Source of the DNA: Promethearchaeota archaeon
GTDB lineage: Archaea; Asgardarchaeota; Lokiarchaeia; Sigyniarchaeales; SOKP01
DNA length: 14,206 bases
NCBI GenBank assembly: GCA_008080735.1
Contig: SHMW01000096.1
Coordinates: forward strand, 1 to 14,206
Direction of reading: 5' to 3'
Shown here piece by piece: positions 926-13,929 of this stretch (position 1 is its first letter; every line of letters begins with the position of its first letter). A program made the position numbers and the translations under genes. The notes below the pieces were generated by a model. The model did not search any database and was not told the origin of the DNA. It was given only the letters and a program-made list of their open reading frames with translations.

Positions 926-1552
926 TCAGTCCTTTATTGCTTCAATCCCTAAAATAATAATATAATCGATTAATTCATCATCCACGTTTACTATGGATTC
1001 ATAACTTACAGAAAGATCATTCTCTTCATTTCTTCCAATAATTAGAGCCCCGTAGAATATTGGGTCTCCTTGTTGGTCAATAACAACTCGATCAGCAAGA
1101 CAAATACCATTCCGAATTAATGCGACAGGATTTTTTAAAATTTCTCCTTTAAAAAAATTTAGATGGTTAATTTTAAAATTATTTTCGGACAAATATAATC
1201 CTGCGGAATGCAATAAATTTATAGCATAAGGAAATGTTTCTGAAAAGCGCTCTTGGTCAAATTGTTCAATTTCTTCTTCGGGTACTAATACAGAATAATC
1301 AATTTCTCCTTTTTTTATATCATATTCGTAGCGCGCACTCTTTGAAAAAGCCTCTTTTTTCTGTTCAGAAATCGATTCGAATCCTATCTTCAGCCCTTTT
1401 GGAATTTCTATAATATTTTCATTTGAATACAGTTTATCGGAGAATATGATTGTGTCATTTTTACATTTTGTGATACAAGAACCTTTAAATTCTCCTAATT
1501 CTCTGAAATTTTTTATTGAATCGTATATAATATAACGTTCTCTTAAGGTCAT
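926..1552 (-). CDS. Hypothetical protein (208 aa), probably co-transcribed with the ATPase
   Basis: 208-aa ORF in AT-rich DNA with a normal protein composition. Its stop lies 17 nt before the ATPase ATG. No recognisable motif. Confidence 0.75.
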   Translation of the reverse strand: MTLRERYIIYDSIKNFRELGEFKGSCITKCKNDTIIFSDKLYSNENIIEIPKGLKIGFESISEQKKEAFSKSARYEYDIKKGEIDYSVLVPEEEIEQFDQERFSETFPYAINLLHSAGLYLSENNFKINHLNFFKGEILKNPVALIRNGICLADRVVIDQQGDPIFYGALIIGRNEENDLSVSYESIVNVDDELIDYIIILGIEAIKD

Positions 1553-1750: not shown

Positions 1751-2926
1751 TTGATTATAATGATGACGATAAGGTTATATTGGGATGAGCCCTATAAGAG
1801 GGAATTTAACGCAAGGATTGATGAGATTGTGAGGGATGGAATTATTTTGAGTAGAACCGTTTTTCATCCCGAAGGCGGAAACCAAGCGGGTGATAAAGGA
1901 ATTTTAGAAAAAGATAATCAAATTTTTAAAGTAGATAATACATCCTCTCTGAATGGTAATATCATTCATCATATCTCATCAGATTTACAAGGAAGGCTTA
2001 AAATTGGAGACAAAATAAAAGGGAAAATTGATTGGGATCATAGATATGGACTCATGAAGTCGCATTCCTCTCAACATCTATTGTCCGCAATATTAAAAAG
2101 AGAATTTGATATAAACACTAACAAGGTAAAAATTCGAGATGATTTTGTGGTATTAAATTTGTCTCAAAAAATAACCGATTCACAGCTATTAAAGGTTCTA
2201 TTAACTGCTAATGAATTCTTTATCCAAAAAAAATTAAGGATTTTTCAAAAATTGGTACCTTTTGAAGAGGCTCAAAATTATAAACCACAACTCAGAGGAA
2301 CAATTCCGAACAAAAAAAAAGTGCGGTTAGTTTTCACTGAGGATTATGACATAACCTGTTGTGGAGGTACTCATGTAAAATATTCCAATGAGATAGGACC
2401 CATATTAGTCTTTGAGTTTAAAAAAGGAAAGAAACTCAAATATTATACAGGCAAAAAAGCTATAGAATACATAGCAAAATATAATATAGATTTTCTAAAC
2501 ATCTCTGAAAAATTCCAGATCCCTCTAAGTGAAGTTAATGAACGTATCAATTGCCAAATTGAAAATTCAGAAAAATTAGTTGAAAATAATATATCCTTGA
2601 AAAAAGAACTTTTAGAATTAGTAGTAAGCAATCCATCTTTGATAAAAAATAATATAAAAATATCATATGTATCATTTCCAATAGAATTTGATATATTAAA
2701 CGAATTCTTTGATAGTTTAGCTGATAAAATATTGTTAATTTTAAAATTAGAAAATCAAGTCCTAAAAATAGTTACGAATTATGAGAATGTTAGCGCAGCA
2801 GAGATTTTGGATAAATTATTAAATAAATTTGGGGGAAAAGGAGGTGGAAGCTCATTTATTGCTCAAGGCAAAATTGAAAAATTTCCCGATGATATTCTAA
2901 ATATAATAGGACAAATGCTCCATTAA
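1751..2926 (+). CDS. alaX: AlaX-L type alanyl-tRNA editing protein (trans-editing deacylase with C-terminal C-Ala/DHHA1-like domain)
   Basis: N-terminal LYWDEPY..EF.A and TVFHPEGGNQAGDKG; Zn-binding HSSQH (HxxxH) and CGGTH (CxxxH); C-terminal GGKGGGSSFIAQG. No aminoacylation domain. The real start may be ATG 1760 or 1763 rather than TTG 1751. Confidence 0.92.
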   Translation: MIIMMTIRLYWDEPYKREFNARIDEIVRDGIILSRTVFHPEGGNQAGDKGILEKDNQIFKVDNTSSLNGNIIHHISSDLQGRLKIGDKIKGKIDWDHRYGLMKSHSSQHLLSAILKREFDINTNKVKIRDDFVVLNLSQKITDSQLLKVLLTANEFFIQKKLRIFQKLVPFEEAQNYKPQLRGTIPNKKKVRLVFTEDYDITCCGGTHVKYSNEIGPILVFEFKKGKKLKYYTGKKAIEYIAKYNIDFLNISEKFQIPLSEVNERINCQIENSEKLVENNISLKKELLELVVSNPSLIKNNIKISYVSFPIEFDILNEFFDSLADKILLILKLENQVLKIVTNYENVSAAEILDKLLNKFGGKGGGSSFIAQGKIEKFPDDILNIIGQMLH

Positions 2927-3025
2927 AGTCATTTTAGGTTTCTTTTCATGATTTATTGTTTTAAGCGTAAAAAAATATAAATGCAGATTTGATATTAATA
3001 ATATAAATCTACTGTTGGATATTCG

Positions 3026-4270
3026 ATGGAACCCAAAATTGTAAATAGAGAAGTCTCAGATCTGTCAAGAAAAGAATTACTTGCACGGAGTTCTGAGTTT
3101 ATTTTCTCTACGGGATTAAACGATGGTACCTCAAGTCTGTGTAAAGAAAATATGAAATATGGTCTAGCGCAAATGCACTTAATCCTAGAGAAGTATGGAT
3201 TCGAACCTAATGCTCTGTTTATATCTTCTCCAGATGAGACTATTTCTAGGAATAGATATCGATGGAATTCAGGTTATGGATATGGAGGTAAATTAGAATG
3301 GGGTGCTGGTGATGATAAAATTGTTTTCCTTAATACAAAACCGAATCATTGTGGTATCTTAGTCCTTGGACTTTGGGAGATGATGGATCCTTATGAAATC
3401 ATCAAGAAAATAGACGAAATAAAATCTAAAGAATTATATTTCGATGGTATTCGGTTAAATTGGGATTATGGCATAAGTAATCATTTCATAAGTTGTTTTA
3501 AAACCAATAATTTAACAGATATGGAATATCCGCCCTATATTTTCTTAATTCATGGCTCCGCTCCGGAATTGCGAGATGATACCTATGGTATAGGCGTATA
3601 TATTGATAAATCTGAAAATCTTAAAAATATGTCAATTAAGGAAGAAACCAAATTCGGAACTCAATATATTGTATTAGATTCAGATGCAGATGAATATATG
3701 GAAATAAATAAAAGAGCCTTAGAATTTTCTTGTAAAAAACGTGAAATAATTGCTCAACACCTATTTGAAAATGAATTTACAATTATTTGTAATCAACCTC
3801 ATCAATTTCTTAAAGATTACAATAGCATCTACTTAGGGAGTAACTGCACGGATATAGAATGTGATTTAATTAATTCGAGTACCTTTCCTATTGCGTTACG
3901 TTCTGATATTTCAGCATATTTGATGGAGGGTACAAATAACTTGACTAAACAGACTATGATGAATTTAGGCTTTTATGAAAGAGCGAAAAAATTGGAGGTG
4001 AATGATAGATTAGAAAATGCCAATATTACCCCACATGGAGCGGGCTATGCTTTTCCAGATATTAAAGATGTAATTAATGTGCTAGAATATAAGGACCAAC
4101 GATATTTTGTTTGTCGTTTGAAAAAAGGAAAAAATAGACTGAAAATTGTGAGAGTAGTATCCGATTTACAATATGAATATCGAAAACGTGAGGTAGTACT
4201 TAAAGCAGTTCAATTAAACTTGGGAAGATTAACGGCTCGTCTTACTCCAGTGTTTAGTTTAAAATTATAA
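3026..4270 (+). CDS. Highly diverged RtcB-family (3'-phosphate/5'-OH RNA ligase-like) protein
   Basis: RtcB-like motifs appear in the canonical order: PD70, GYGYGG, NHC109G, GISNH153F, LIH176GS, EY..I..RA.EF...KR.II helix, H259, PIALRSDISAYLMEG, TPH337GAG, EYRK.EVV and C-terminal ARLTPVFSLK413. Confidence 0.75.
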   Translation: MEPKIVNREVSDLSRKELLARSSEFIFSTGLNDGTSSLCKENMKYGLAQMHLILEKYGFEPNALFISSPDETISRNRYRWNSGYGYGGKLEWGAGDDKIVFLNTKPNHCGILVLGLWEMMDPYEIIKKIDEIKSKELYFDGIRLNWDYGISNHFISCFKTNNLTDMEYPPYIFLIHGSAPELRDDTYGIGVYIDKSENLKNMSIKEETKFGTQYIVLDSDADEYMEINKRALEFSCKKREIIAQHLFENEFTIICNQPHQFLKDYNSIYLGSNCTDIECDLINSSTFPIALRSDISAYLMEGTNNLTKQTMMNLGFYERAKKLEVNDRLENANITPHGAGYAFPDIKDVINVLEYKDQRYFVCRLKKGKNRLKIVRVVSDLQYEYRKREVVLKAVQLNLGRLTARLTPVFSLKL

Positions 4271-4321: not shown

Positions 4322-6373
4322 TTATTCTATTTTGGCTCCCGATTCAACATCCTTATCGGGTGTTAGAACAGAAACTTGATCTCCTTCTACAGCAGCTAAT
4401 AACATACCTTCACTTAGAACTCCCCTTAGCTTTTTTGGTTCGAGGTTTATCAAAACCGCTATCTTCTTTCCAATTAATTCTTCCGGTTTATAGTACTTTG
4501 CTAGTCCAGCAGCTAATGTTCGTAATTCATCACCCACGGATATCGTTAATTTGTATAGTTTATCTGCATTAGCTACCTCTTCAACTTTTTCTATATTTGC
4601 GACTCGAATATCTAATTTTTTAAAATCGTCATAAGAAATATAATCCATTTTTTTTCCTTCCTTTTTTTGTTTTTTGATATTTACCAGATTTTTTTTAATG
4701 TCCTCAATATCTAACTTTTGGAAAAGCGGTTGGGCCTTCTTAATTGATTGCCCAGTTTCTAATGCATTTTCTTTAATACTTTCCCATCCAAGATCATTAA
4801 GATTTTGTTCAATATTCAACAATTCAAGAATCTTTTCAGAAGTCTCGGGAATAAATGGACTGAGTAGAATCGCTAAGGCGTATACAAATTGCGCACATAA
4901 ATGAAACACATGACCTGCTGCTTTTTTATTCTTCTTAATAATATGCCAAGGTGCTTTTTCGTTTAGGTAAATGTTGCCTTCCCGTGCAAATTCAACAATT
5001 TCTCGAATAGCTTTTCTCATCTCAAAATTATCTAAAAAATGTCCTATTTTGTTTGATATTGAGTTGATTTTTGAAATAAAATTTATATCTGTCTCATCTA
5101 AATCTATCTTTTCAGGAATTTTACTCTTAAATTGTTTGTTAATAAAGGTTAGTGTTCTGTGAATAAAATTTCCAATCACATCGTTTAAGGTATTCATATT
5201 ATTTTCAAATTCCGACCATAAAAACGATGTATCACTTTTTTCTGGTCTATTATAGACTAAATTAAACCTCCAATAATCCAGTGGGGCGATTTCAAGAGCC
5301 TCATCAATCCAAATTCCCACACCACGAGATTTAGAAAATTTATCATTTTCATACATTAAGAATTCGGTTGAGGACACGTTATATGGAAGCACGAATTTTT
5401 CATCTTCCTTTTTATTATCATTATATGCCATAAGCAGACCCGGGAAAACAATAAGATGGAAGATAATATTGTCTTTTCCAATGAAATATACAGTTTTCGT
5501 TTCTTGATCTTTCCAATAATAATCGAATTTGGAAGATTCCTTTACTATCCTCTCTGACCACTCTTTTACAGCGGAAATGTACCCGAGAACTGCTTCAAAC
5601 CACACATATATAGACTTATTTTCCGCTCCTTTAAAGGGAGCTGGAATCCCCCATTCTAAATCTCTGGTTATTGCTCGCTCGGGCAATCCCTCATTAATAC
5701 TATTTAAACATACTTGTCGCGCGTTCTGGGGGATTATTTCATTATTTTGTATTATCTCTGCCAATCTTTTTTGTAATTGAGGAAAATCCATATACCAGTG
5801 TTTTGTTTTTTTTATTTCTGGTGTCTCTCCACATATAGCACAACGAGGTTCTTTTAATTCAAGTGGAGTCAAGAGTTTTTGACATTTATCACATTGATCT
5901 CCACGGGCATTTTCAAAACCACAATGAGGACATATTCCTTCTACGAATCGATCTGGTAAAAATAATGCATCATGACTACAATAAAGAGATTTTATTTCTT
6001 TTTCAAAAATATATCCGTTTTTTTGAACCTCTGAATAAAAATTTTGAGAAAACTCGATATGAACTGGATTGTGAGTTTGCGTGTAGTTATCATAGGAAAT
6101 TCTCCATTTTTCAAACAAATTTTTAATAATGGCATGATTTTTCATTGCTAAATCTTCCGCATCCATCCCTTCTCTCTTCGCTGCTACTGCTACCGGGGTT
6201 CCATGCATATCAGATCCTGATACAAACACCACCTCCTCTCCTTTTAATCTAAGATAACGAGCAAATATGTCAGCGGACAAAACACTCCCGATTAAGTTCC
6301 CTAAATGAGGAATGGCATTCACATAAGGCCAAGCTGAAGTGACAACCCATTTTCCTTTTTTTGACTTTGACAA
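4322..6373 (-). CDS. metG: Methionine--tRNA ligase with C-terminal Trbp111-like tRNA-binding domain
   Basis: TSAWPYVNAIPHLGN (HIGH), GSDMHG, Zn knuckles CPHC/CDKC/CAIC, YVWFEA, FIGKDNIIFH and KFSKS (KMSKS). C-terminal DDFKKLDIRV...LRGVLSEGMLLAA. TTG start preceded by GGAGGT. Confidence 0.98.
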   Translation of the reverse strand: MSKSKKGKWVVTSAWPYVNAIPHLGNLIGSVLSADIFARYLRLKGEEVVFVSGSDMHGTPVAVAAKREGMDAEDLAMKNHAIIKNLFEKWRISYDNYTQTHNPVHIEFSQNFYSEVQKNGYIFEKEIKSLYCSHDALFLPDRFVEGICPHCGFENARGDQCDKCQKLLTPLELKEPRCAICGETPEIKKTKHWYMDFPQLQKRLAEIIQNNEIIPQNARQVCLNSINEGLPERAITRDLEWGIPAPFKGAENKSIYVWFEAVLGYISAVKEWSERIVKESSKFDYYWKDQETKTVYFIGKDNIIFHLIVFPGLLMAYNDNKKEDEKFVLPYNVSSTEFLMYENDKFSKSRGVGIWIDEALEIAPLDYWRFNLVYNRPEKSDTSFLWSEFENNMNTLNDVIGNFIHRTLTFINKQFKSKIPEKIDLDETDINFISKINSISNKIGHFLDNFEMRKAIREIVEFAREGNIYLNEKAPWHIIKKNKKAAGHVFHLCAQFVYALAILLSPFIPETSEKILELLNIEQNLNDLGWESIKENALETGQSIKKAQPLFQKLDIEDIKKNLVNIKKQKKEGKKMDYISYDDFKKLDIRVANIEKVEEVANADKLYKLTISVGDELRTLAAGLAKYYKPEELIGKKIAVLINLEPKKLRGVLSEGMLLAAVEGDQVSVLTPDKDVESGAKIE

Positions 6374-6560: not shown

Positions 6561-7139
6561 TCAAAATATTTCAATGAATTTCACTGTTTTTCCATCATAT
6601 TTGACTGCAATGCCGCCAAATAATAAAAATTGGCGATAAAACCATTTTAATTTAGGATATCCGTTTCTGGATATTTCTAAGGTCTTTTCATCAAAAATTT
6701 CTGAAAGATAAATTTTATCTATAGTTAATGTAGAAAGTTTTTTTTCTTTCATTAATGATTTAATCTTTTGGTAGCCCGCTTTAAATTCTTGTGTTAAATT
6801 CTCAGATTTTTCCAGAAAGAGGAAATTCAAGGCTAATTCTTGTGAAGAAGAAATGGCTAAAATAACGCTTGGACCCAATTGTTTCAAAATTAACCATCCT
6901 TTAGCATAATGAATATTTACTTGATCGAAAAAACCCATATTCATCTCTTGAATTAAATTTTTGGAAAGAAATTGTATCACCGTTATAATCGCCGCGACTT
7001 TTACTATATCGGTATCAAGTTTAGAAGTAGAAGCAATTGGCATTCCTTCATTATTAACAATGAAGGCTGAATTCACTTCAGAATATTTCTCTAAAACAAT
7101 TTCTAAAAATTTATTGAGATTTCCTACAAAGGATTTCAT
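6561..7139 (-). CDS. Roadblock/LC7 (MglB-like) domain protein with a ~75-aa C-terminal extension
   Basis: EVNSAFIVNNEGMPIAS..., VAAIITVIQFLSKNLIQEMNMGFFDQVNIHYAKGWLILKQLGPSVILAI match the Roadblock pattern. SD-like GAGG upstream. Confidence 0.88.
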   Translation of the reverse strand: MKSFVGNLNKFLEIVLEKYSEVNSAFIVNNEGMPIASTSKLDTDIVKVAAIITVIQFLSKNLIQEMNMGFFDQVNIHYAKGWLILKQLGPSVILAISSSQELALNFLFLEKSENLTQEFKAGYQKIKSLMKEKKLSTLTIDKIYLSEIFDEKTLEISRNGYPKLKWFYRQFLLFGGIAVKYDGKTVKFIEIF

Positions 7140-7215: not shown

Positions 7216-8394
7216 TTATTCAAAAATAATTTGTGAACCGCAATATCGGCAAGCACCTATTTCTTTGTACATTTTTTCGAGACAAGGTTTATGATAATAA
7301 GAACCGCATTCTTCGCATTTAAAGACATTATAATCTCCCAAAAAAATACTATGGCAATAAGAGCAAGATGCATTTATATTTCTAATCTGATTATCCGGGA
7401 TTAAGAGCATCTTTGTTGTTTGATTGTCTTCCTCTCCCACAATTTCGACTTTCTTTTTCTGATCTATGTCATCTCCTACAATTTTTAATACCGAAGAGGG
7501 TACCCGCAGGAGAAAATAACAGAAAGGGCACCTAAATATATTTTTTTTGTATTCTGTCCTTTTAGACCAGAGAGCCGCACACGTAAGATGCATAGGACGA
7601 TCACATGATGGACAATAGCGACCCTCCGAGAAAAAATCTGAATTGGTGAGTGGAGACTTTACAGAATGACAAATCTGGCATTTCTCTTGTCCTGAGCCTT
7701 CATTGTTCATCATCATCCGTATTTCCATTATGGTAGGGCGTCTTAATGGTAAGGCAACTTCACTTATTAAAGGAGGCATCTCTTTTTTTTTCGCAGGGGA
7801 AAAATAATCTGATGTCTTTTTGAGGTTCTTTTTGGAGGCAAAAGACTTTCCCGCATTAATTACCGCTTTGGGGTTGGTAAAAAAACCATATTCCCCACCC
7901 GTGAGTTTGGAAATCTGCTTTAATGTATTTTCTCTTAAACTTTCTGCTAGCCCCAACTGACATGAATCTATAATAATTCCTAATCCTTTAGCGATATTGA
8001 CAATTTCCTCAAGCTTTTTTGACCTCCTAAAATTAGCATCGCTGATAATTATTATTCTTGGAATTTTTCCGCCAATTTTTCTCATCTCTTCAACAAGAAT
8101 TTGAAGGGCAAATGCTATCGCATCATGTAAATCGCCTCTTCCTGAAATTTGGGTCTTTTGCAGTGAATCAATTAGTTTATTTTCTTGATTTGAAAACCCA
8201 CATAATTTTGTGGTAATATCACCAAAACTCAAGATAGCTATTTGGTCCTTTGGATCAATCATTAATTTACTTTTTGTAAAGTTTTTGACCGATTTCAGAG
8301 CAATAGTTAAGCGATTAGGTTTAAAATCTCGCCGAAGCATAGAACGTGATGAATCTATTAAGACAACCGAATCTTCAATCTTTATCTCTTCCAA
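7216..8394 (-). CDS. vWA domain (Ssl1/p44-Rpn10 type) fused to two C4HC3 RING-like zinc fingers
   Basis: VVLIDSSRSM (MIDAS DxSxS), DFKPNRL, IIIISD and ISKLTGGEY. Finger 1: C239/C242/C261/C264/H269/C272/C289/C292. Finger 2: C344/C347/C360/C363/H368/C371/C382/C385. TTG start with AAGGA upstream. Confidence 0.9.
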   Translation of the reverse strand: MEEIKIEDSVVLIDSSRSMLRRDFKPNRLTIALKSVKNFTKSKLMIDPKDQIAILSFGDITTKLCGFSNQENKLIDSLQKTQISGRGDLHDAIAFALQILVEEMRKIGGKIPRIIIISDANFRRSKKLEEIVNIAKGLGIIIDSCQLGLAESLRENTLKQISKLTGGEYGFFTNPKAVINAGKSFASKKNLKKTSDYFSPAKKKEMPPLISEVALPLRRPTIMEIRMMMNNEGSGQEKCQICHSVKSPLTNSDFFSEGRYCPSCDRPMHLTCAALWSKRTEYKKNIFRCPFCYFLLRVPSSVLKIVGDDIDQKKKVEIVGEEDNQTTKMLLIPDNQIRNINASCSYCHSIFLGDYNVFKCEECGSYYHKPCLEKMYKEIGACRYCGSQIIFE

Positions 8395-8472: not shown

Positions 8473-9834
8473 TTATTGATTTTGTTGGGGTTTTAGAAAA
8501 TTATAAGCAAATAGAGTATAGGTTTTTATTGCATTTATAAAATCTTCAATTTCGATATATTCATCGACAGAATGTGCTGTAGAAGCACTTCCAGGCCCAA
8601 ATAGTATGGTATCAGAACAAAAACCATTGTTTCGCAAATAATGTGCATCTGCACATGCAGGATATAAGATATAAAATGAATCTCTTTCATAAATTTTACC
8701 CACAATGTCATAAAACTGTTTTAATGTATCAGAATCTTTCCAATTTTCCCAATAAGAGCCCTCAGATTTATGTATAATTTCAAAGGTAAAATACGCATCA
8801 GCTTTTTCTTCCTCTGGTTCTTTGAATTCATATCCTAAATCTTTTATTAAACCTTTGAGAGCATTTAAGATTTGATTAGGATCTTGCTTTGGTAATAACC
8901 GAAAGTCTATAACCATTTCACATCGATCGGGAACCACATTTTCTTTTATCCCTCCTCCGATCATGGTCACACTCTTAGTGAACTTCGTTAATGATTCCAC
9001 AAGATGTTGTAGTAATTCTTGTTGCTGGTAAATATTTTCGAAAATATCCTTGCTTGGAAATGCCTCTGCTATCAAATCTTTTAGTTCTACAAATGATATG
9101 GGAGGTTCTATTTCTGGAATTTTACTATCTATTTGGTCAAGTTTATGCAAAAGTTCGTTGACCATAAGTATCGCATTTTTCCCCATAGACGGCATTGATG
9201 CGTGGCATGAAATTCCATGTGCAATTATTTTCAGTTGGAGATGGCCTCTTTCTCCTAGCACTATTGCTTTAGGTAAAGGACTCAATCCAGTAGGTTCACC
9301 AACTATCGCAAAATCGCACTTAATATCTGCAAGCTTATTCTCCAACACCCATTTTGTTCCCTTTTTTCCTCCCGTCTCCTCATCCGATACGGCCGTTAAA
9401 ATAAGATTACCTTCTATTTCTAAATCTAACTCCTTTAAAATTTGTAAAGAAATAACCATAGCTGTTAACCCCCCTTTCATATCGGCTGCCCCTCTTCCAT
9501 AAATATATTTATTACGCTTATTATAGGCAGATAAAGGAGGATATTTCCAATCTGACTCTGTACCTGCGGGAACTATGTCCATGTGACCATTAAAAAGTAA
9601 ATTCTTCTGTTTAAAATTATCATTCAAAAATGCAATAAGATTTGCTCTATTTTCATCATATTCAAATATTTGTACATCTATATTATGCTCTTTTAAATAC
9701 TGGGAAATAGTATTAGCTAAATTTAATTCATTTCCAGGTGGATTGTAAGAATCAGTCTTGACCATTTCCCGAAAATATTCAATAAATTCGTCTCTTTTTT
9801 TTTCTATATATTGAAGTATTATTTCTTCTGACAT
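8473..9834 (-). CDS. M20 family metallo-hydrolase (ArgE/DapE-like deacylase)
   Basis: DSYNPPGNE, FNGHMD, YGRGAADMKGG, SDEETGG, VGEPT, GISCHAS, ENVVPDRC..IDFR and AHSVDEYI. The substrate cannot be assigned from sequence. Confidence 0.95.
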   Translation of the reverse strand: MSEEIILQYIEKKRDEFIEYFREMVKTDSYNPPGNELNLANTISQYLKEHNIDVQIFEYDENRANLIAFLNDNFKQKNLLFNGHMDIVPAGTESDWKYPPLSAYNKRNKYIYGRGAADMKGGLTAMVISLQILKELDLEIEGNLILTAVSDEETGGKKGTKWVLENKLADIKCDFAIVGEPTGLSPLPKAIVLGERGHLQLKIIAHGISCHASMPSMGKNAILMVNELLHKLDQIDSKIPEIEPPISFVELKDLIAEAFPSKDIFENIYQQQELLQHLVESLTKFTKSVTMIGGGIKENVVPDRCEMVIDFRLLPKQDPNQILNALKGLIKDLGYEFKEPEEEKADAYFTFEIIHKSEGSYWENWKDSDTLKQFYDIVGKIYERDSFYILYPACADAHYLRNNGFCSDTILFGPGSASTAHSVDEYIEIEDFINAIKTYTLFAYNFLKPQQNQ

Positions 9835-9988
9835 ACAAGCCCATAAAGTTATAATTCTTAGACTAATTAATATATAGGATTGAGATAATTTAAAAACTAT
9901 TTTCTACTCTAACTTTTAATAAATTTTTAAAATTTGCAAATTTTACTTATAGTAATTATATATTAAATAGTATTCAACGGGTAATTTC

Positions 9989-12900
9989 TTGTCTCATCAA
10001 AAAAGATTTGTTAAAAAGCGTTTCTTAGCTTTAAGTGTTATTACGCTTATAATTTTCTCTGGTTTTCTATTTGTAGGAAATTTAAATTCGGAGTTTTATA
10101 ATTCTAATACTGATCACGACAATATCGGTCCTATATTACCTTCAAATTGGGATACTGAATTGGATAAAAATATATCAGGTCTAGGAAATAATCAGATTGT
10201 AAGAGTATATCTACAAAATCAATCGTCCTCTCTAGATAATACGGGAGGTAGTTTTGAATTGGAGGCGGTTGATGATACTTATCTTGATTCTGGAGATTTT
10301 TTATTTCAATTTGCGAACAATTTCACTACAAATCACACTATGGTATTTGATTCCACTGACTTGTATAATTTTACTTTTACTAATGAAACAAAACTCGGCT
10401 TAGAATTCGATATTAGAGGAAATAATACGATATTTCATGGATTTTATGCGCATTTGAATACCTCAAACGAAATAGCCGCAACAAACACTGAAATTAATAT
10501 ATCATTATATAGAGCCGATACTTCTACCCAAGACAGGGAGTCTTTAAGTTGTTGGCCTGAAAACTATGTTGATTCAGTTGTTATTACAGATGTAGTTGCT
10601 GACAGTCTTGCATATTACGATTTTCCAGATACCACTCTTGAACCTTTTAATTATTTTATTGTACTTAGCACAAATAATTCTTTAAATGCATATAGCCTTA
10701 TAGCTCATTGGAATGACGAAGGAGAAGGAGAAAATAACGAACATCTGTTAGAAATGGATATTGGACATGGTTGGGAACTAGCCGAAAGATCGATAAGCGG
10801 AGGAGGACAATCAAATGATTTTGATGCCAGTTCCTTTACGCTTAATGTAACTAGAGGATATATGCCAACCGATTTTGAGGTGGATTCAAATAGAACACTA
10901 AGGATTCAAAACATCCCCCTAAATGACACCAAAGAAGAATCATTCATTTACCAAAATATTTATCAATGGGGTGTTGGAAGCTGGGATGCTGAATTTCCCA
11001 ATCCGATATACGACGGAGCAGATGATGATTTTGATGTTACTCTTATGTGGAATCAGAGCGGGACGGGAATAAACGATTTCTTGTTTAATCTGTCGTATTC
11101 TGCCCTGAGCTATCATCAAGGAAATTCAGAGGCAACCTATTTCGCGGATTACAATGGAGATATCAAATGGTCATTAAATTATACCTTGAGCTCAAGCTGG
11201 CTAACTTTGCAGAACTGGAATTTTACTGAGATGTGGTTTTTATATCCTTGGTATCATAATAATCTCAGTTTGATAACTCCCAGTAAGGGATCATCAAATG
11301 TATTAGATATAACAGCCGGAGAAACCCGTTTACAAGAAAATAAGACTTTAGATAAACTAGTAATTCCATATAGTCTTTCCAATTTTAGTGGATTATATGA
11401 ACTTAATTTAACCAGTCCTAATGTGCTAAATCAAATTTACAGTTATATTAATTATAAAGGAAATCTTTTGGAAACCTCTGGATTTATGTTTGAAGATAAT
11501 ATGACCATCCAAGCAGATATCGCAGGCCCAAGTACTTTTGCGCCAACTGGAGGAACGGCGAATGCTAAATTGTTCGATCCAAATGAATTGGAATACGCCA
11601 CAGATACAGAATCGCCAGGTACATTAAGCTTTGATAAAACTCTGCTAACTTATGATTTTAATAATGATACCCTTTTGGAAATTGATGGATCAGTTCCCGA
11701 GGGTACCTATTATCTCGGAATAATATGGAAAAATGGGAGCTTGATTGGGATTGGAAATATTCCAATATATATCAACCATTATGATCTAACTTTTAGGGAA
11801 GTAAATGAACTTGAAGATGAGAATTCCTTTCTATTGACTGATATCTCCAGATTTAATGATAAAAATGATGAATATTATCCATATCAATTGCTTGGTGCTT
11901 CCATTAATGAAACAGATGAATTTCCAGAAAATTTCTATGCAATAAAACACGAACAAATGGCTCAAAAATTCCTTTATAAAAATGAAATCGAATTAGAATT
12001 GAGAAATTTCTTGCAGAATGAATCGATCATTAATCCGGGGGAAGAGATTAAGTTTAAAATTACACTAAAAAATAATCGTAGAGGAATAAGCTTAAATAAT
12101 GTAAAAGTTTCAGTTAAATTGGTATCGCCTATAAATGATAATTGGATTATGGCAACGGATGATTCGATTTTACAGACCTTGGAAGGAGCCGGGAATCCCA
12201 ATGGGAATGATCAAAAGAATTTCACTATTTCACTTCAGATACCAACTATTGAAGGACCTAATGGGTTTTGGCCAGGATATAATTCCCCGATTAGATTAGG
12301 TGGTGCGAAGACAATAGTAACTGTATATATAGATAATGAAGAAATTTATTCCTATAATTCTCAAGATTTAGGGCTTCTTGTAAATCAAACTGAAGATCTG
12401 TTTGAGGGCTATATTTTGTCATTATCAAACACACCCGATGGCACAGATAATGGGGCTTCCATACAAATACCTCGAGATAAATGTATTTACACCCCTGGAA
12501 CAACAACCCTTCTTATAAACATCCAAGATTATAACCACATAAGTAGCTATCAGTTGTATAGCAACACCTACCAGATGAATAAGTCAAGTAAATTTCAATC
12601 TATTACAACCACTCCTGAAACACCTGTTCAAGGTGAAAGTTTTAATTTGACTTCACAGTTAACCACCGAATTCGGAACGATTCTCACAGGAGAAACTGTC
12701 AATTGCGAATCCTATAATGGTACTGATTGGATTCTCATTACTGATTCTCCACAAGTGACGGATAGTGATGGAAAAACTTCATTCCAAGTAGATACGACCT
12801 CGATATCAGTTGAGAATGGAATTGTCCAACTTAGATTATTATGGGATGGAAAAGAAAATATTACCGGGATCATAAAGGAAATCAATGTCACTTTGTTTTC

Positions 12901-13516
12901 ATATAACAATGAACTATCTATTAGTGCTAATTTCCGAAATCCACCCATCTATAGAAATTCTGAAGCAATATTAGACATTACATTGACTAATATCGGCGAT
13001 TCTAATTTAAATATAACAAACATCCTTCTTAACTTTCCAGGAATATCACCATTTTATCAAATCGTTGGAAAGGATTCATATTCCTTACAATTCTTTGAAC
13101 CAGACAAATCTACAGAATTAGTATATAAAATATACTTTCAATCTATCCCAACTAATACGCTAAGCATAAATGTTTCTGTTATTGCAACTAATATTGATAC
13201 AAGTGAAATAATCACCGTTGAAACCACTACATCTGTCAGTGTGCTCGATTTCCCGATTTTTGAAAACTTTATGAATTTTTTCACCCTAATAATGGTGTCA
13301 ATTTTAGCGTTAATAATCGCAATCTCATTGTATTATTCATATATCCTAAAACGAAGAATTGAAACCCCCGTATCGAAACCTACAGCGAAAAAGAAAAGAA
13401 GAGGGGTATATAGAAAAGTCTCTGAAATAAAGGAAGAAACTGAAAAAGAAGAAAAGAAAAAGACTAAAAAGAAGAAAACTGATTTAGATTCATTATTAGA
13501 AGAAGAAGGGATTTAA
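9989..13516 (+). CDS. Large membrane-anchored cell-surface glycoprotein (N-terminal signal/TM, beta-rich Ig-like ectodomain, C-terminal TM, charged tail)
   Basis: Basic N-terminus plus hydrophobic FLALSVITLIIFSGFLFV. More than 30 N-x-S/T sequons by hand count. Ig/CARDB-like segments (INPGEEIKFKITLKN, PVQGESFNLTSQL, LDITLTNIGDSNL). TM FFTLIMVSILALIIAISLYYSYIL at 13277-13348, followed by a 55-aa K/E-rich tail. Confidence 0.88.
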   Translation: MSHQKRFVKKRFLALSVITLIIFSGFLFVGNLNSEFYNSNTDHDNIGPILPSNWDTELDKNISGLGNNQIVRVYLQNQSSSLDNTGGSFELEAVDDTYLDSGDFLFQFANNFTTNHTMVFDSTDLYNFTFTNETKLGLEFDIRGNNTIFHGFYAHLNTSNEIAATNTEINISLYRADTSTQDRESLSCWPENYVDSVVITDVVADSLAYYDFPDTTLEPFNYFIVLSTNNSLNAYSLIAHWNDEGEGENNEHLLEMDIGHGWELAERSISGGGQSNDFDASSFTLNVTRGYMPTDFEVDSNRTLRIQNIPLNDTKEESFIYQNIYQWGVGSWDAEFPNPIYDGADDDFDVTLMWNQSGTGINDFLFNLSYSALSYHQGNSEATYFADYNGDIKWSLNYTLSSSWLTLQNWNFTEMWFLYPWYHNNLSLITPSKGSSNVLDITAGETRLQENKTLDKLVIPYSLSNFSGLYELNLTSPNVLNQIYSYINYKGNLLETSGFMFEDNMTIQADIAGPSTFAPTGGTANAKLFDPNELEYATDTESPGTLSFDKTLLTYDFNNDTLLEIDGSVPEGTYYLGIIWKNGSLIGIGNIPIYINHYDLTFREVNELEDENSFLLTDISRFNDKNDEYYPYQLLGASINETDEFPENFYAIKHEQMAQKFLYKNEIELELRNFLQNESIINPGEEIKFKITLKNNRRGISLNNVKVSVKLVSPINDNWIMATDDSILQTLEGAGNPNGNDQKNFTISLQIPTIEGPNGFWPGYNSPIRLGGAKTIVTVYIDNEEIYSYNSQDLGLLVNQTEDLFEGYILSLSNTPDGTDNGASIQIPRDKCIYTPGTTTLLINIQDYNHISSYQLYSNTYQMNKSSKFQSITTTPETPVQGESFNLTSQLTTEFGTILTGETVNCESYNGTDWILITDSPQVTDSDGKTSFQVDTTSISVENGIVQLRLLWDGKENITGIIKEINVTLFSYNNELSISANFRNPPIYRNSEAILDITLTNIGDSNLNITNILLNFPGISPFYQIVGKDSYSLQFFEPDKSTELVYKIYFQSIPTNTLSINVSVIATNIDTSEIITVETTTSVSVLDFPIFENFMNFFTLIMVSILALIIAISLYYSYILKRRIETPVSKPTAKKKRRGVYRKVSEIKEETEKEEKKKTKKKKTDLDSLLEEEGI

Positions 13517-13578: not shown

Positions 13579-13929
13579 TTAAAGATTAGAAATCGATATC
13601 AAATTCCTTTTTAGTAGTCCTAATGATGCTCTTCCGTCTACACCAGCAAGAGCAATAAGTAACAGTTTCTCTGAACCCGCTAAAACCGCATATCCGCCTT
13701 CTAACTCGATGGTTGTATTTTTAACTGTACCTTTTCCAATATCATTTCCTAGTGTATTTGAATCACTTAAAATTTTCGCACATGCTTTCGCAATGCTTCC
13801 ATGATCCATCTCGGTTAAAGTTTGACCAACAATGACATTTCCATCTGTATCCGCAGCGATTAAGCCCTCACATTCGGGTACAAGGTCCATGAGTTGGGCT
13901 AATTTCGGCTCAATTGTTTCCTTACTCAT
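13579..13929 (-). CDS. Stand-alone Roadblock/LC7 domain protein
   Basis: 116 aa: VPECEGLIAADTDGNVIVG, helix SIAKACAKIL, DIGKGTVKNTTIELEGGYAVL and ASLGLL. SD AAGAGGA upstream. Confidence 0.9.
   Translation of the reverse strand: MSKETIEPKLAQLMDLVPECEGLIAADTDGNVIVGQTLTEMDHGSIAKACAKILSDSNTLGNDIGKGTVKNTTIELEGGYAVLAGSEKLLLIALAGVDGRASLGLLKRNLISISNL

Follow-up and report, generated by a model that had tools for sequence, protein, structure and literature searches.

The first 14,206 nucleotides of contig SHMW01000096.1, from a Promethearchaeota archaeon of the Lokiarchaeia (assembly GCA_008080735.1), were analysed as a single stretch that we refer to as the window. It carries a gene for a 414-residue protein that an initial annotation, made from the letters alone, had read as an atypical relative of the RNA ligase RtcB. 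To our knowledge, RtcB is the only enzyme class that joins a 3′-phosphate to a 5′-OH through a histidine-guanosine monophosphate (His-GMP) intermediate, its fold is without another characterised family, and its chemistry is so far known for polynucleotide ends only. The locus thus poses the question of whether the RtcB-like protein retains this chemistry and, if it does, on what kind of molecule. The best explanation of the results described below is that the protein belongs to a large sister family of RtcB that is without a curated sequence model, in which the fold and the metal/histidine centre are the same and the substrate-binding surface has been rebuilt. Judged from its conserved residues, the RtcB-like enzyme probably still works.

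An RtcB fold is predicted for a protein outside the RtcB sequence models

The N-terminus of the RtcB-like protein aligned with its homologues starting at residue 1, and the start codon is therefore sound. A Pfam search with the single sequence gave no match to the RtcB family PF01139 at E≤10, and what it returned was sub-threshold noise, including a match to TyrRS_C and one to RNase T2 (E 1e-3) that was taken as chance. The NCBIfam RtcB equivalog PRK09588, whose cut-off is 407 bits, scored only 10.4, and a phmmer search of PDB sequences with the RtcB-like protein alone produced no usable match.

To compare the protein with RtcB at the level of structure and of profiles, we used a 62-sequence alignment of the divergent family, with homologues down to 23% identity (alignment A2), and a canonical RtcB set of 22 sequences (E. 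coli and 21 from Asgard archaea). The AlphaFold2 model built on A2 had a predicted local distance difference test score (pLDDT) of 95.9 and a predicted template modelling score (pTM) of 0.93. When it was searched against the PDB with Foldseek, RtcBs took each of the top 16 places (E 5e-9 to 1.5e-5), followed by a match at E 0.05. VIA, which is independent of Foldseek, aligned 307 residues of the model with T. thermophilus RtcB (2epg_B) at Z 21.2 and a root-mean-square deviation of 3.5 Å; the next chain scored Z 5.2. The fold proposed in the initial annotation was thus borne out. The A2 profile, searched against all PDB sequences, likewise had RtcBs as its top four matches (E 0.0095–0.031), with sNHF paired with GNHF, HGS with HTGS, and HGGGY with HGAGR; the C-terminal Lys was aligned as well. 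Finally, local hhalign of A2 with the 22 canonical RtcBs gave an E value of 3.7e-5 over 300 columns. This local alignment is the basis of the residue map used here, the global one having misaligned the N-terminal half. On the model and the profile alignments, the RtcB-like protein has the RtcB fold and its homology to RtcB is real, and the two together would place its catalytic residues in one pocket.

The metal/histidine centre is conserved

The residues that had been picked out as following the order of the RtcB active site, namely C109, N152/H153, H176, H259, H337 of HGAG, and K413, were all found at those positions in the translation, in the contexts KPNHCG, SNHF, IHGS, PHQ, PHGAGY and the terminal SLKL, respectively. 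The only invariant columns among the 62 homologues are G87, H153, F154, H176, H259, G271, H337 and G340, and at least 90% conservation was observed at D33, P69, D70, C109, G110, N152, R239, P336, G338, Y385 and R386.

When these positions were mapped onto E. coli RtcB, the ligands of the first metal (Mn1) proved to be retained: C109, H176 and H259 correspond to C78, H185 and H281 (58/62, 62/62 and 62/62), C78 being the residue that bridges both metals in RtcB. H153, present in all 62 sequences, corresponds to H168, a ligand of the second metal (Mn2). It is preceded by N152, the counterpart of N167 (60/62), and followed by the equally invariant F154. In RtcB, this Asn contacts both the GMP phosphate and the 5′-OH nucleophile (PMC8051266). 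H337 of the HGxG motif aligns with E. coli H337, the guanylylated His of RtcB. The initial annotation had taken the approximately 45 residues after HGAG for unrelated sequence, which was wrong; they align with the C-terminal segment of RtcB, with SDLQYEYR in the place of EEAPxAYK and with the terminal Lys retained (Table 1). The guanine contacts described for human RTCB are E230, S409 and K504 (PMC8668186), and K413 is the counterpart of the last of these. The presence of a nucleotide pocket in the RtcB-like protein is plausible on this pattern. Because the Mn1 site, the nucleophile loop, the Asn, the stacking Tyr and the terminal Lys are all conserved, the protein is predicted to be an active enzyme that forms a histidine-nucleoside monophosphate (His-NMP) adduct and passes the NMP to a phosphate.

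Substrate and Mn2 residues are replaced, and a basic insert is gained

Identity between the RtcB-like protein and canonical RtcB is 12–17%. Canonical positions D75, E171, R189, N282, R298/K299, S320, R341 and R345 (E. coli) are occupied by the same residue in 22/22 canonical sequences and are replaced throughout the divergent family. The first of these is the Asp of the DxxCG motif, a ligand of Mn2. It had been noted as apparently lost, and hhalign indeed pairs it with K105; this position is Lys or Arg in 47/62 homologues, versus Asp in every canonical sequence. N107 is found in 55/62. The Mn2 metal held by this Asp touches the γ-phosphate of GTP in RtcB (PMC8051266). Candidates for a spatial stand-in are position 103 (D/N/E/Q), N107, D147, D33 and E181.

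The residues that recognise guanine and RNA fared no better. The guanine-binding Glu (E. coli E171, human E230) is replaced by S156, a variable position among the homologues, and the guanine-binding Ser (human S409) by A297. The Arg that clamps the 5′-OH strand (P. horikoshii R238, E. coli R189; PMC8051266) has become P180, and the position is basic in only 7 of the 62 homologues. Alignment to canonical RtcB also confirmed the changes of HN to HQ (N282 to Q260), HGAGR to HGAGY (R341 to Y341) and RKGA to YLGS that had been read from the sequence, and R345 is replaced by D345. The segment that holds P. horikoshii R190/Q194 (R155/Q159), residues present in 21–22 of the 22 canonical sequences, is deleted. 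There is a deletion of about 27 residues ahead of the NHF motif, and the RtcB-like protein is about 70 residues shorter than archaeal RtcBs.

The family has also acquired features of its own. The basic insert reported after the PD motif was confirmed as seven residues, ISRNRYR, and is well conserved (R75 in 54/62, N76 in 53/62 and R79 in 54/62), as is W80 directly after it (50/62). Further conserved family residues are D33, D147, E181, R/K183, R239 and R386. We infer from these replacements that the RtcB-like enzyme may have a different substrate or chemistry.

Table 1. Positions in the window of the RtcB-like gene, its motifs and the adjoining features (residue numbers are those of the RtcB-like protein unless E. 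coli or human is named; fractions are counts among the 62 homologues or, for the neighbouring genes, among 80 related loci)
Feature	Position	Strand	Remarks
Divergent RtcB-fold enzyme (P0001)	3026..4270	+	Single uninterrupted open reading frame, 414 aa
A/T-rich TATA-like box	2969..2982	+	About 45 bp 5′ of the ATG; read by eye
P69-D70 motif and family-specific basic insert I73-R79 (ISRNRYR), then W80	3230..3262	+	PD aligned with E. coli MPDVH
K105-P-N-H-C109-G110, counterpart of DxxCG	3338..3355	+	K105 aligned with D75 and C109 with C78; N107 inserted
N152-H153-F154-I-S156, counterpart of GNHFxE	3479..3493	+	Asn and Mn2 His kept; guanine-binding Glu replaced
H176-G-S-A-P180-E181, counterpart of H(S/T)GSRG	3551..3568	+	Mn1 His kept; Arg clamping the 5′-OH strand replaced by Pro
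H259-Q260, counterpart of HN (E. coli Mn1 His281)	3800..3805	+	H 62/62, Q 48/62; H281 and N282 each 22/22 in canonical RtcB
P336-H337-G-A-G340-Y341...D345, predicted nucleotidyl-His loop	4031..4060	+	H337 and G340 62/62; Y341 51/62
D380...Y385-R386, counterpart of E-E-A-P-x-A-Y-K	4163..4183	+	Base-stacking Tyr kept; Y 56/62, R 61/62
K413, counterpart of the near-terminal guanine-contacting Lys (E. coli K407, human K504)	4262..4264	+	K 42/62, R 7/62
208-aa conserved hypothetical protein (hyp208), divergent neighbour	926..1552	-	Synteny 71/80
Methionyl-tRNA synthetase (MetRS), convergent	4322..6373	-	51-bp gap to the RtcB-like gene; 79/80

The divergent family is large, separate from canonical RtcB and coexists with it

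At 90% identity the divergent family forms 507 clusters, nearly all of 407–418 residues, which come from Lokiarchaeia/Promethearchaeota-type metagenome-assembled genomes (MAGs). As had been expected, all of the named homologues bear the label 'hypothetical protein'. At 50% identity there are 231 clusters, extending to 24% identity, and the sources of the distant members include Thor-, Hod-, Heimdall- and Sif-archaea, one Bathyarchaeota MAG and one Armatimonadota MAG. The ESM Atlas holds related clusters with bacterial members, among them one 366-residue cluster in which 13% of the members carry PF01139. PF01139 also touches 5/62 members of A2, with a best E value of 0.007. Because the family is otherwise invisible to Pfam and NCBIfam, thousands of its genes are labelled hypothetical, and a search of open-licence PMC papers and bioRxiv found no description of it.

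The initial annotation had asked whether canonical RtcB and archease are encoded in the same genome. The assembly (4.1 Mb, 93% complete) contains two canonical RtcBs, which scored 570 and 556 bits, and a single archease gene (contig C1, 51391-51810) that adjoins the second of them (C1, 51843-53150). This archease lies on another contig than the window, and the RtcB-like gene is thus not linked to it. Canonical RtcB was present in 41/41 sampled Asgard genomes. The divergent family was found in 212/400 Asgard genomes and in 119/134 of those within the GTDB family of the window; it is absent from several other families, and some genomes have two or three paralogues.

In a maximum-likelihood tree of 98 sequences, 22 canonical and 76 divergent proteins were split by a branch of about 2.3 substitutions/site with 100% support in the Shimodaira-Hasegawa-like approximate likelihood-ratio test (SH-aLRT). 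The orthologues of the window gene formed a tight clade. On its canonical side this tree samples RtcB from E. coli and from Asgard archaea and does not include the RtcB2 and RtcB3 of bacteria. Given the length and support of this branch, the divergent family is not nested in canonical RtcB. Together with the failure of every RtcB sequence model to match, this separate clade upholds the earlier proposal of a distinct RtcB subfamily.

In three Asgard genomes (G015, G011 and G302), canonical RtcB genes were found in open frames of about 1000 residues, with the Pfam match split (1-50/44-426) by 1.5–2.5 kb. Such a split would fit the presence of an intein within RtcB like the one known from P. horikoshii.

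Gene context of the relatives points to phosphoester metabolism

Among relatives of the window gene, an HD-domain phosphohydrolase (193–243 aa) is encoded directly upstream (position -1) in 9/18 loci, which span four GTDB families, and 2 of these 9 HD loci show the row Metallophos (about 540 aa)-HD-RtcB-like. Among paralogues with about 22–30% identity, two genomes show a Metallophos-RtcB-like-GDPD row, another arrangement has the RtcB-like gene overlapping GDPD, and in three genomes belonging to a single genus the gene follows a pair that encodes a peptidase and a gamma-glutamyltranspeptidase; other neighbours of such paralogues encode a methyltransferase, an SDR protein, SerB and a weakly GalT-like HIT protein. 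HAD proteins are also among the phosphoesterases in these gene rows and fusions. In two clusters, an N-terminal APH-type kinase is fused to the RtcB-like domain, and a 936-residue Metallophos-containing cluster in the ESM Atlas was matched by the whole RtcB-like model (TM 0.72). A search for fused forms of 810–2310 aa found none, which is weak evidence since the 936-residue Metallophos fusion cluster exists. NCBIfam assigned only generic phosphohydrolase or phosphodiesterase names to the partner proteins.

What these contexts share is phosphoester metabolism. GDPD and APH kinases act on small molecules, whereas HD and Metallophos proteins can act either on small molecules or on RNA ends. That the partners are phosphoesterases and a kinase suggests that the substrate is a small phosphoester or a compound resembling a nucleotide, and not a long RNA.

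The Metallophos partner belongs to a multi-copy family of about 530 residues that was found in 288/400 Asgard genomes; in one subgroup of it, the gene is either co-linear with that of the RtcB-like enzyme or fused to it. Members of this family, calcineurin-like phosphoesterases (8923-10536 (-) in locus L175 and, in the genome of the window, C56:6307-7848), have a 280-residue C-terminal extension without a family model.

Possible functions of the RtcB-like enzyme

By analogy with RtcB, the best reading of these observations is that the RtcB-like protein would be a nucleoside triphosphate (NTP)- and metal-dependent enzyme of the His-NMP phosphotransfer type that acts on a non-canonical phosphate-bearing substrate. 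We put at about 0.6 the probability that it is a working RtcB-type phosphotransfer/ligase enzyme whose substrate is non-canonical and probably not a polynucleotide. In such an enzyme, a divalent metal would bind the NTP at the Mn1 site (C109/H176/H259), next to a remodelled Mn2 site made up of C109/H153 without the Asp. H337 would attack the α-phosphate of the NTP to give a covalent His-NMP, and the NMP would be handed to a phosphate monoester of the substrate, possibly once a cyclic phosphate has been opened. A hydroxyl placed by N152 might then displace the NMP, leaving a phosphodiester; alternatively, the reaction could end in an NMP-capped product with no diester step. The fold, the homology, the kept and the replaced residues, the separate clade and the gene contexts are observed; the chemical steps, the NTP used and the substrate are inferred. 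A standard tRNA or RNA-repair substrate is argued against, because the RNA-strand and guanine contacts are lost and the two co-resident canonical RtcBs and archease would cover tRNA exons and broken RNA; a different phosphate-bearing molecule is most likely.

A more specific and tentative proposal is that the family consists of RtcB-type, NTP-dependent phosphodiester synthases whose substrates are small molecules. In this scheme, a phosphomonoester would react with His337-NMP to give an activated NMP-pyrophosphate intermediate, from which a second alcohol would displace the NMP. Candidate substrates would be glycerol, inositol or sugar phosphate, or a 3′-nucleotide supplied by the HD, Metallophos or GDPD partners.

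Several observations weigh against an RtcB-type reaction on a molecule other than RNA or DNA. Within the protein, 4/62 members of the family are without the bridging Cys, the use of an NTP could be impaired where the Mn2 Asp is missing, and the basic insert (R75, R79, W80), together with R/K183, R239 and R386, could provide a new means of holding nucleic acid. As to context, the phosphoesterase and kinase associations stem from paralogues and from orthologues 22–46% identical to the window protein; the clade of the window gene, in GTDB family f1, has none of these partners adjacent, and the Metallophos (41% identity) and HD (30%) homologues of its own genome sit on other contigs. The phyletic pattern of the 530-residue Metallophos family does not track that of the RtcB-like family, a comparison that is uninformative because the former is multi-copy and present where the latter is absent. 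HD and Metallophos proteins also heal RNA ends, so the contexts are compatible with RNA. Lastly, hyp208, the neighbour in the lineage of the window, appears to share, at middling Z, the Sm fold that is common among RNA-binding proteins.

These points bear most directly on an alternative that we consider rather unlikely, namely that the protein is a nucleic-acid enzyme: an RNA or DNA 3′-phosphate ligase or 3′-end capping enzyme that would bind a special RNA by means of the basic insert in place of the canonical arginines, perhaps with the Sm-like neighbour. The RtcB fold with a complete nucleotidyl-His/Mn1 centre is what such an enzyme would have; N152, whose counterpart positions the 5′-OH in RtcB (PMC8051266), is kept in 60/62 homologues, and the R75/N76/R79/W80 insert is conserved beside the active-site PD motif. 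On the other hand, R189, R341, R345 and the R155/Q159 segment, which include the residues shown to contact the 5′-OH strand, are all absent. The partners can be read in either direction, HD and Metallophos being known RNA end-healing domains, whereas GDPD and the APH-type kinase are enzymes of small molecules.

The neighbourhood of the window gene is divided in the same way. The gene order in 80 related loci is hyp208 (divergent, 71/80), the RtcB-like gene, MetRS (convergent, 79/80), a vWA-RING gene (74/80) and an M20 peptidase gene (67/80), and in the window the RtcB-like gene is flanked by genes for an AlaX-like protein and MetRS. Family-library searches gave no match for hyp208. Its AlphaFold2 model (pLDDT 79.9) contains two β-barrels, and in VIA both halves matched almost solely Sm/LSm/Hfq proteins, which made up most of the top 50 rows at Z 5–6.2, middling values for this tool; Foldseek returned no match below E 1e-3. 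From the model, hyp208 may be a tandem Sm-like protein, and as the divergent neighbour in 71/80 loci it would suit an RNA-directed enzyme. The Sm-like call, however, rests on Z 5–6, under the level at which the tool is reliable, and the AlaX-like gene occurs at this place in 0/80 related loci. Moreover, none of the hyp208/MetRS neighbourhood was found in seven further Asgard families, from which 18 loci (copies 37–46% identical) were compared. Because it is confined to one GTDB family (f1), the linkage is best read as lineage synteny and provides little functional evidence. As a separate observation, remote homology between hyp208 and the HD protein that adjoins the RtcB-like gene in other lineages was rejected (hhalign probability 0.3%).

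It is improbable that the family uses the RtcB metal centre for hydrolysis only, as a cyclic phosphodiesterase or phosphoesterase without nucleotidylation, with the His as a general base or as phospho-His. The lost Mn2 Asp would fit this scheme, since its metal contacts the GTP γ-phosphate in RtcB (PMC8051266), as would the loss of the guanine-binding Glu and Ser and the fact that the recurrent partners are all phosphoesterases; RtcB itself includes a cyclic phosphodiesterase step (PMC8668186). What such a scheme explains poorly is the invariance of the HGxG loop, the backbone of which holds the ribose, and the conservation, in most members, of Tyr385 and the terminal Lys, which are hard to explain without a bound nucleotide. 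A non-catalytic RtcB-fold protein with a structural or regulatory role can be set aside almost entirely: several canonical-invariant residues are lost and the family is not curated, but among the 62 sequences, which go as low as 23% identity, invariance is confined to the catalytic His residues and the glycines near them, the signature of a selected active site.

Comparison with known systems

The closest known system is canonical RtcB (PF01139), represented by the E. coli enzyme, P. horikoshii PH1602 (1uc2/4dwq/4dwr/7lfq), T. thermophilus TTHA1785 (2epg) and human RTCB (7p3b/8odp). Common to it and the RtcB-like protein are the fold, the Cys/His/His order of the Mn1 site, the Mn2 His with its preceding Asn, HGxG, the stacking Tyr and the near-terminal Lys. 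The RtcB-like protein differs in having lost the Mn2 Asp, the guanine Glu and Ser, R189/R341/R345 and RKGA, in having gained the seven-residue basic insert, in forming a separate clade and in having no archease neighbour.

Bacterial RtcB2, of the RtcB2-PrfH ribosome-repair module, is described in two reports as an RNA ligase by which cleaved 16S rRNA is repaired (PMC9223846, PMC13166195). It resembles the RtcB-like protein in being encoded by an extra RtcB-type gene beside the housekeeping function, with a presumed specialised substrate. Unlike RtcB2, the RtcB-like family is without the RNA-contact arginines and lies outside PF01139. No PrfH-type partner was seen in the loci examined around the divergent family.

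A further likeness, drawn from general knowledge, is to heal-and-seal RNA repair (Pnkp/Hen1, T4 Pnkp with Rnl, Trl1), which combines kinase, phosphoesterase and ligase. Relatives of the RtcB-like protein are similarly fused to, or in rows with, an APH kinase and HD, Metallophos, HAD and GDPD phosphoesterases. In the heal-and-seal systems, however, the kinases are P-loop polynucleotide kinases and the ligases are ATP-dependent adenylyltransferases, whereas among the relatives the kinase is of the small-molecule APH type, one partner is a glycerophosphodiesterase and the 'ligase' has the RtcB fold.

Since the catalytic centre is kept while the RNA and guanine residues are replaced, the divergent family would show other uses of RtcB chemistry. 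Its 231 clusters at 50% identity are spread over about half of the sampled Asgard genomes, in which it is very well conserved, and the Asgard archaea are the archaeal lineage closest to eukaryotes. Should the small-molecule synthase proposal be true, RtcB chemistry would extend to metabolites or lipid head groups in these organisms; a defined substrate of either kind would bring a metabolic reaction or an RNA-processing step that is new to the biology of the Asgard archaea.

Other features of the window and of related loci

The window has a GC content of about 31%, and scans for tRNA genes and Rfam families in it found none. The TATA-like box upstream of the RtcB-like gene (Table 1) is possibly its own archaeal promoter. 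The AlaX-like trans-editing protein mentioned above is encoded at 1751-2926 (+), between hyp208 and the RtcB-like gene, with a TTG start codon, and has a C-terminal part of tRNA-synt_2c together with tRNA_SAD and DHHA1 domains; a gene of this kind at this place was found in the window only.

A contig labelled 'Candidatus Nanopelagicaceae bacterium' (DATKTW010000029.1) carries the Lokiarchaeial hyp208/RtcB-like/MetRS/vWA/M20 block at 48–71% identity and is probably a mis-binned Asgard contig. The vWA protein of the window (392 aa; 7216-8394 (-)), the gene of which adjoins MetRS in 74/80 loci, has an N-terminal vWA domain and C-terminal Cys-rich zinc fingers of the RING/PHD/C1-like type, a combination that looks eukaryote-like.

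Roadblock/LC7 proteins, which are typical of Asgard genomes, are encoded at 6561-7139 (-) and 13579-13929 (-) and are MglB-like. The former, of 192 residues, has a C-terminal extension of about 95 residues without a family match and occurs in 1/80 related loci. The gene at 9989-13516 (+) encodes a protein of 1175 residues that had no Pfam or NCBIfam match and is kept in 56/80 related loci. It has an N-terminal signal or anchor, a C-terminal transmembrane helix, numerous N-x-S/T sites and a tail rich in Lys and Glu, and is probably located at the cell surface.

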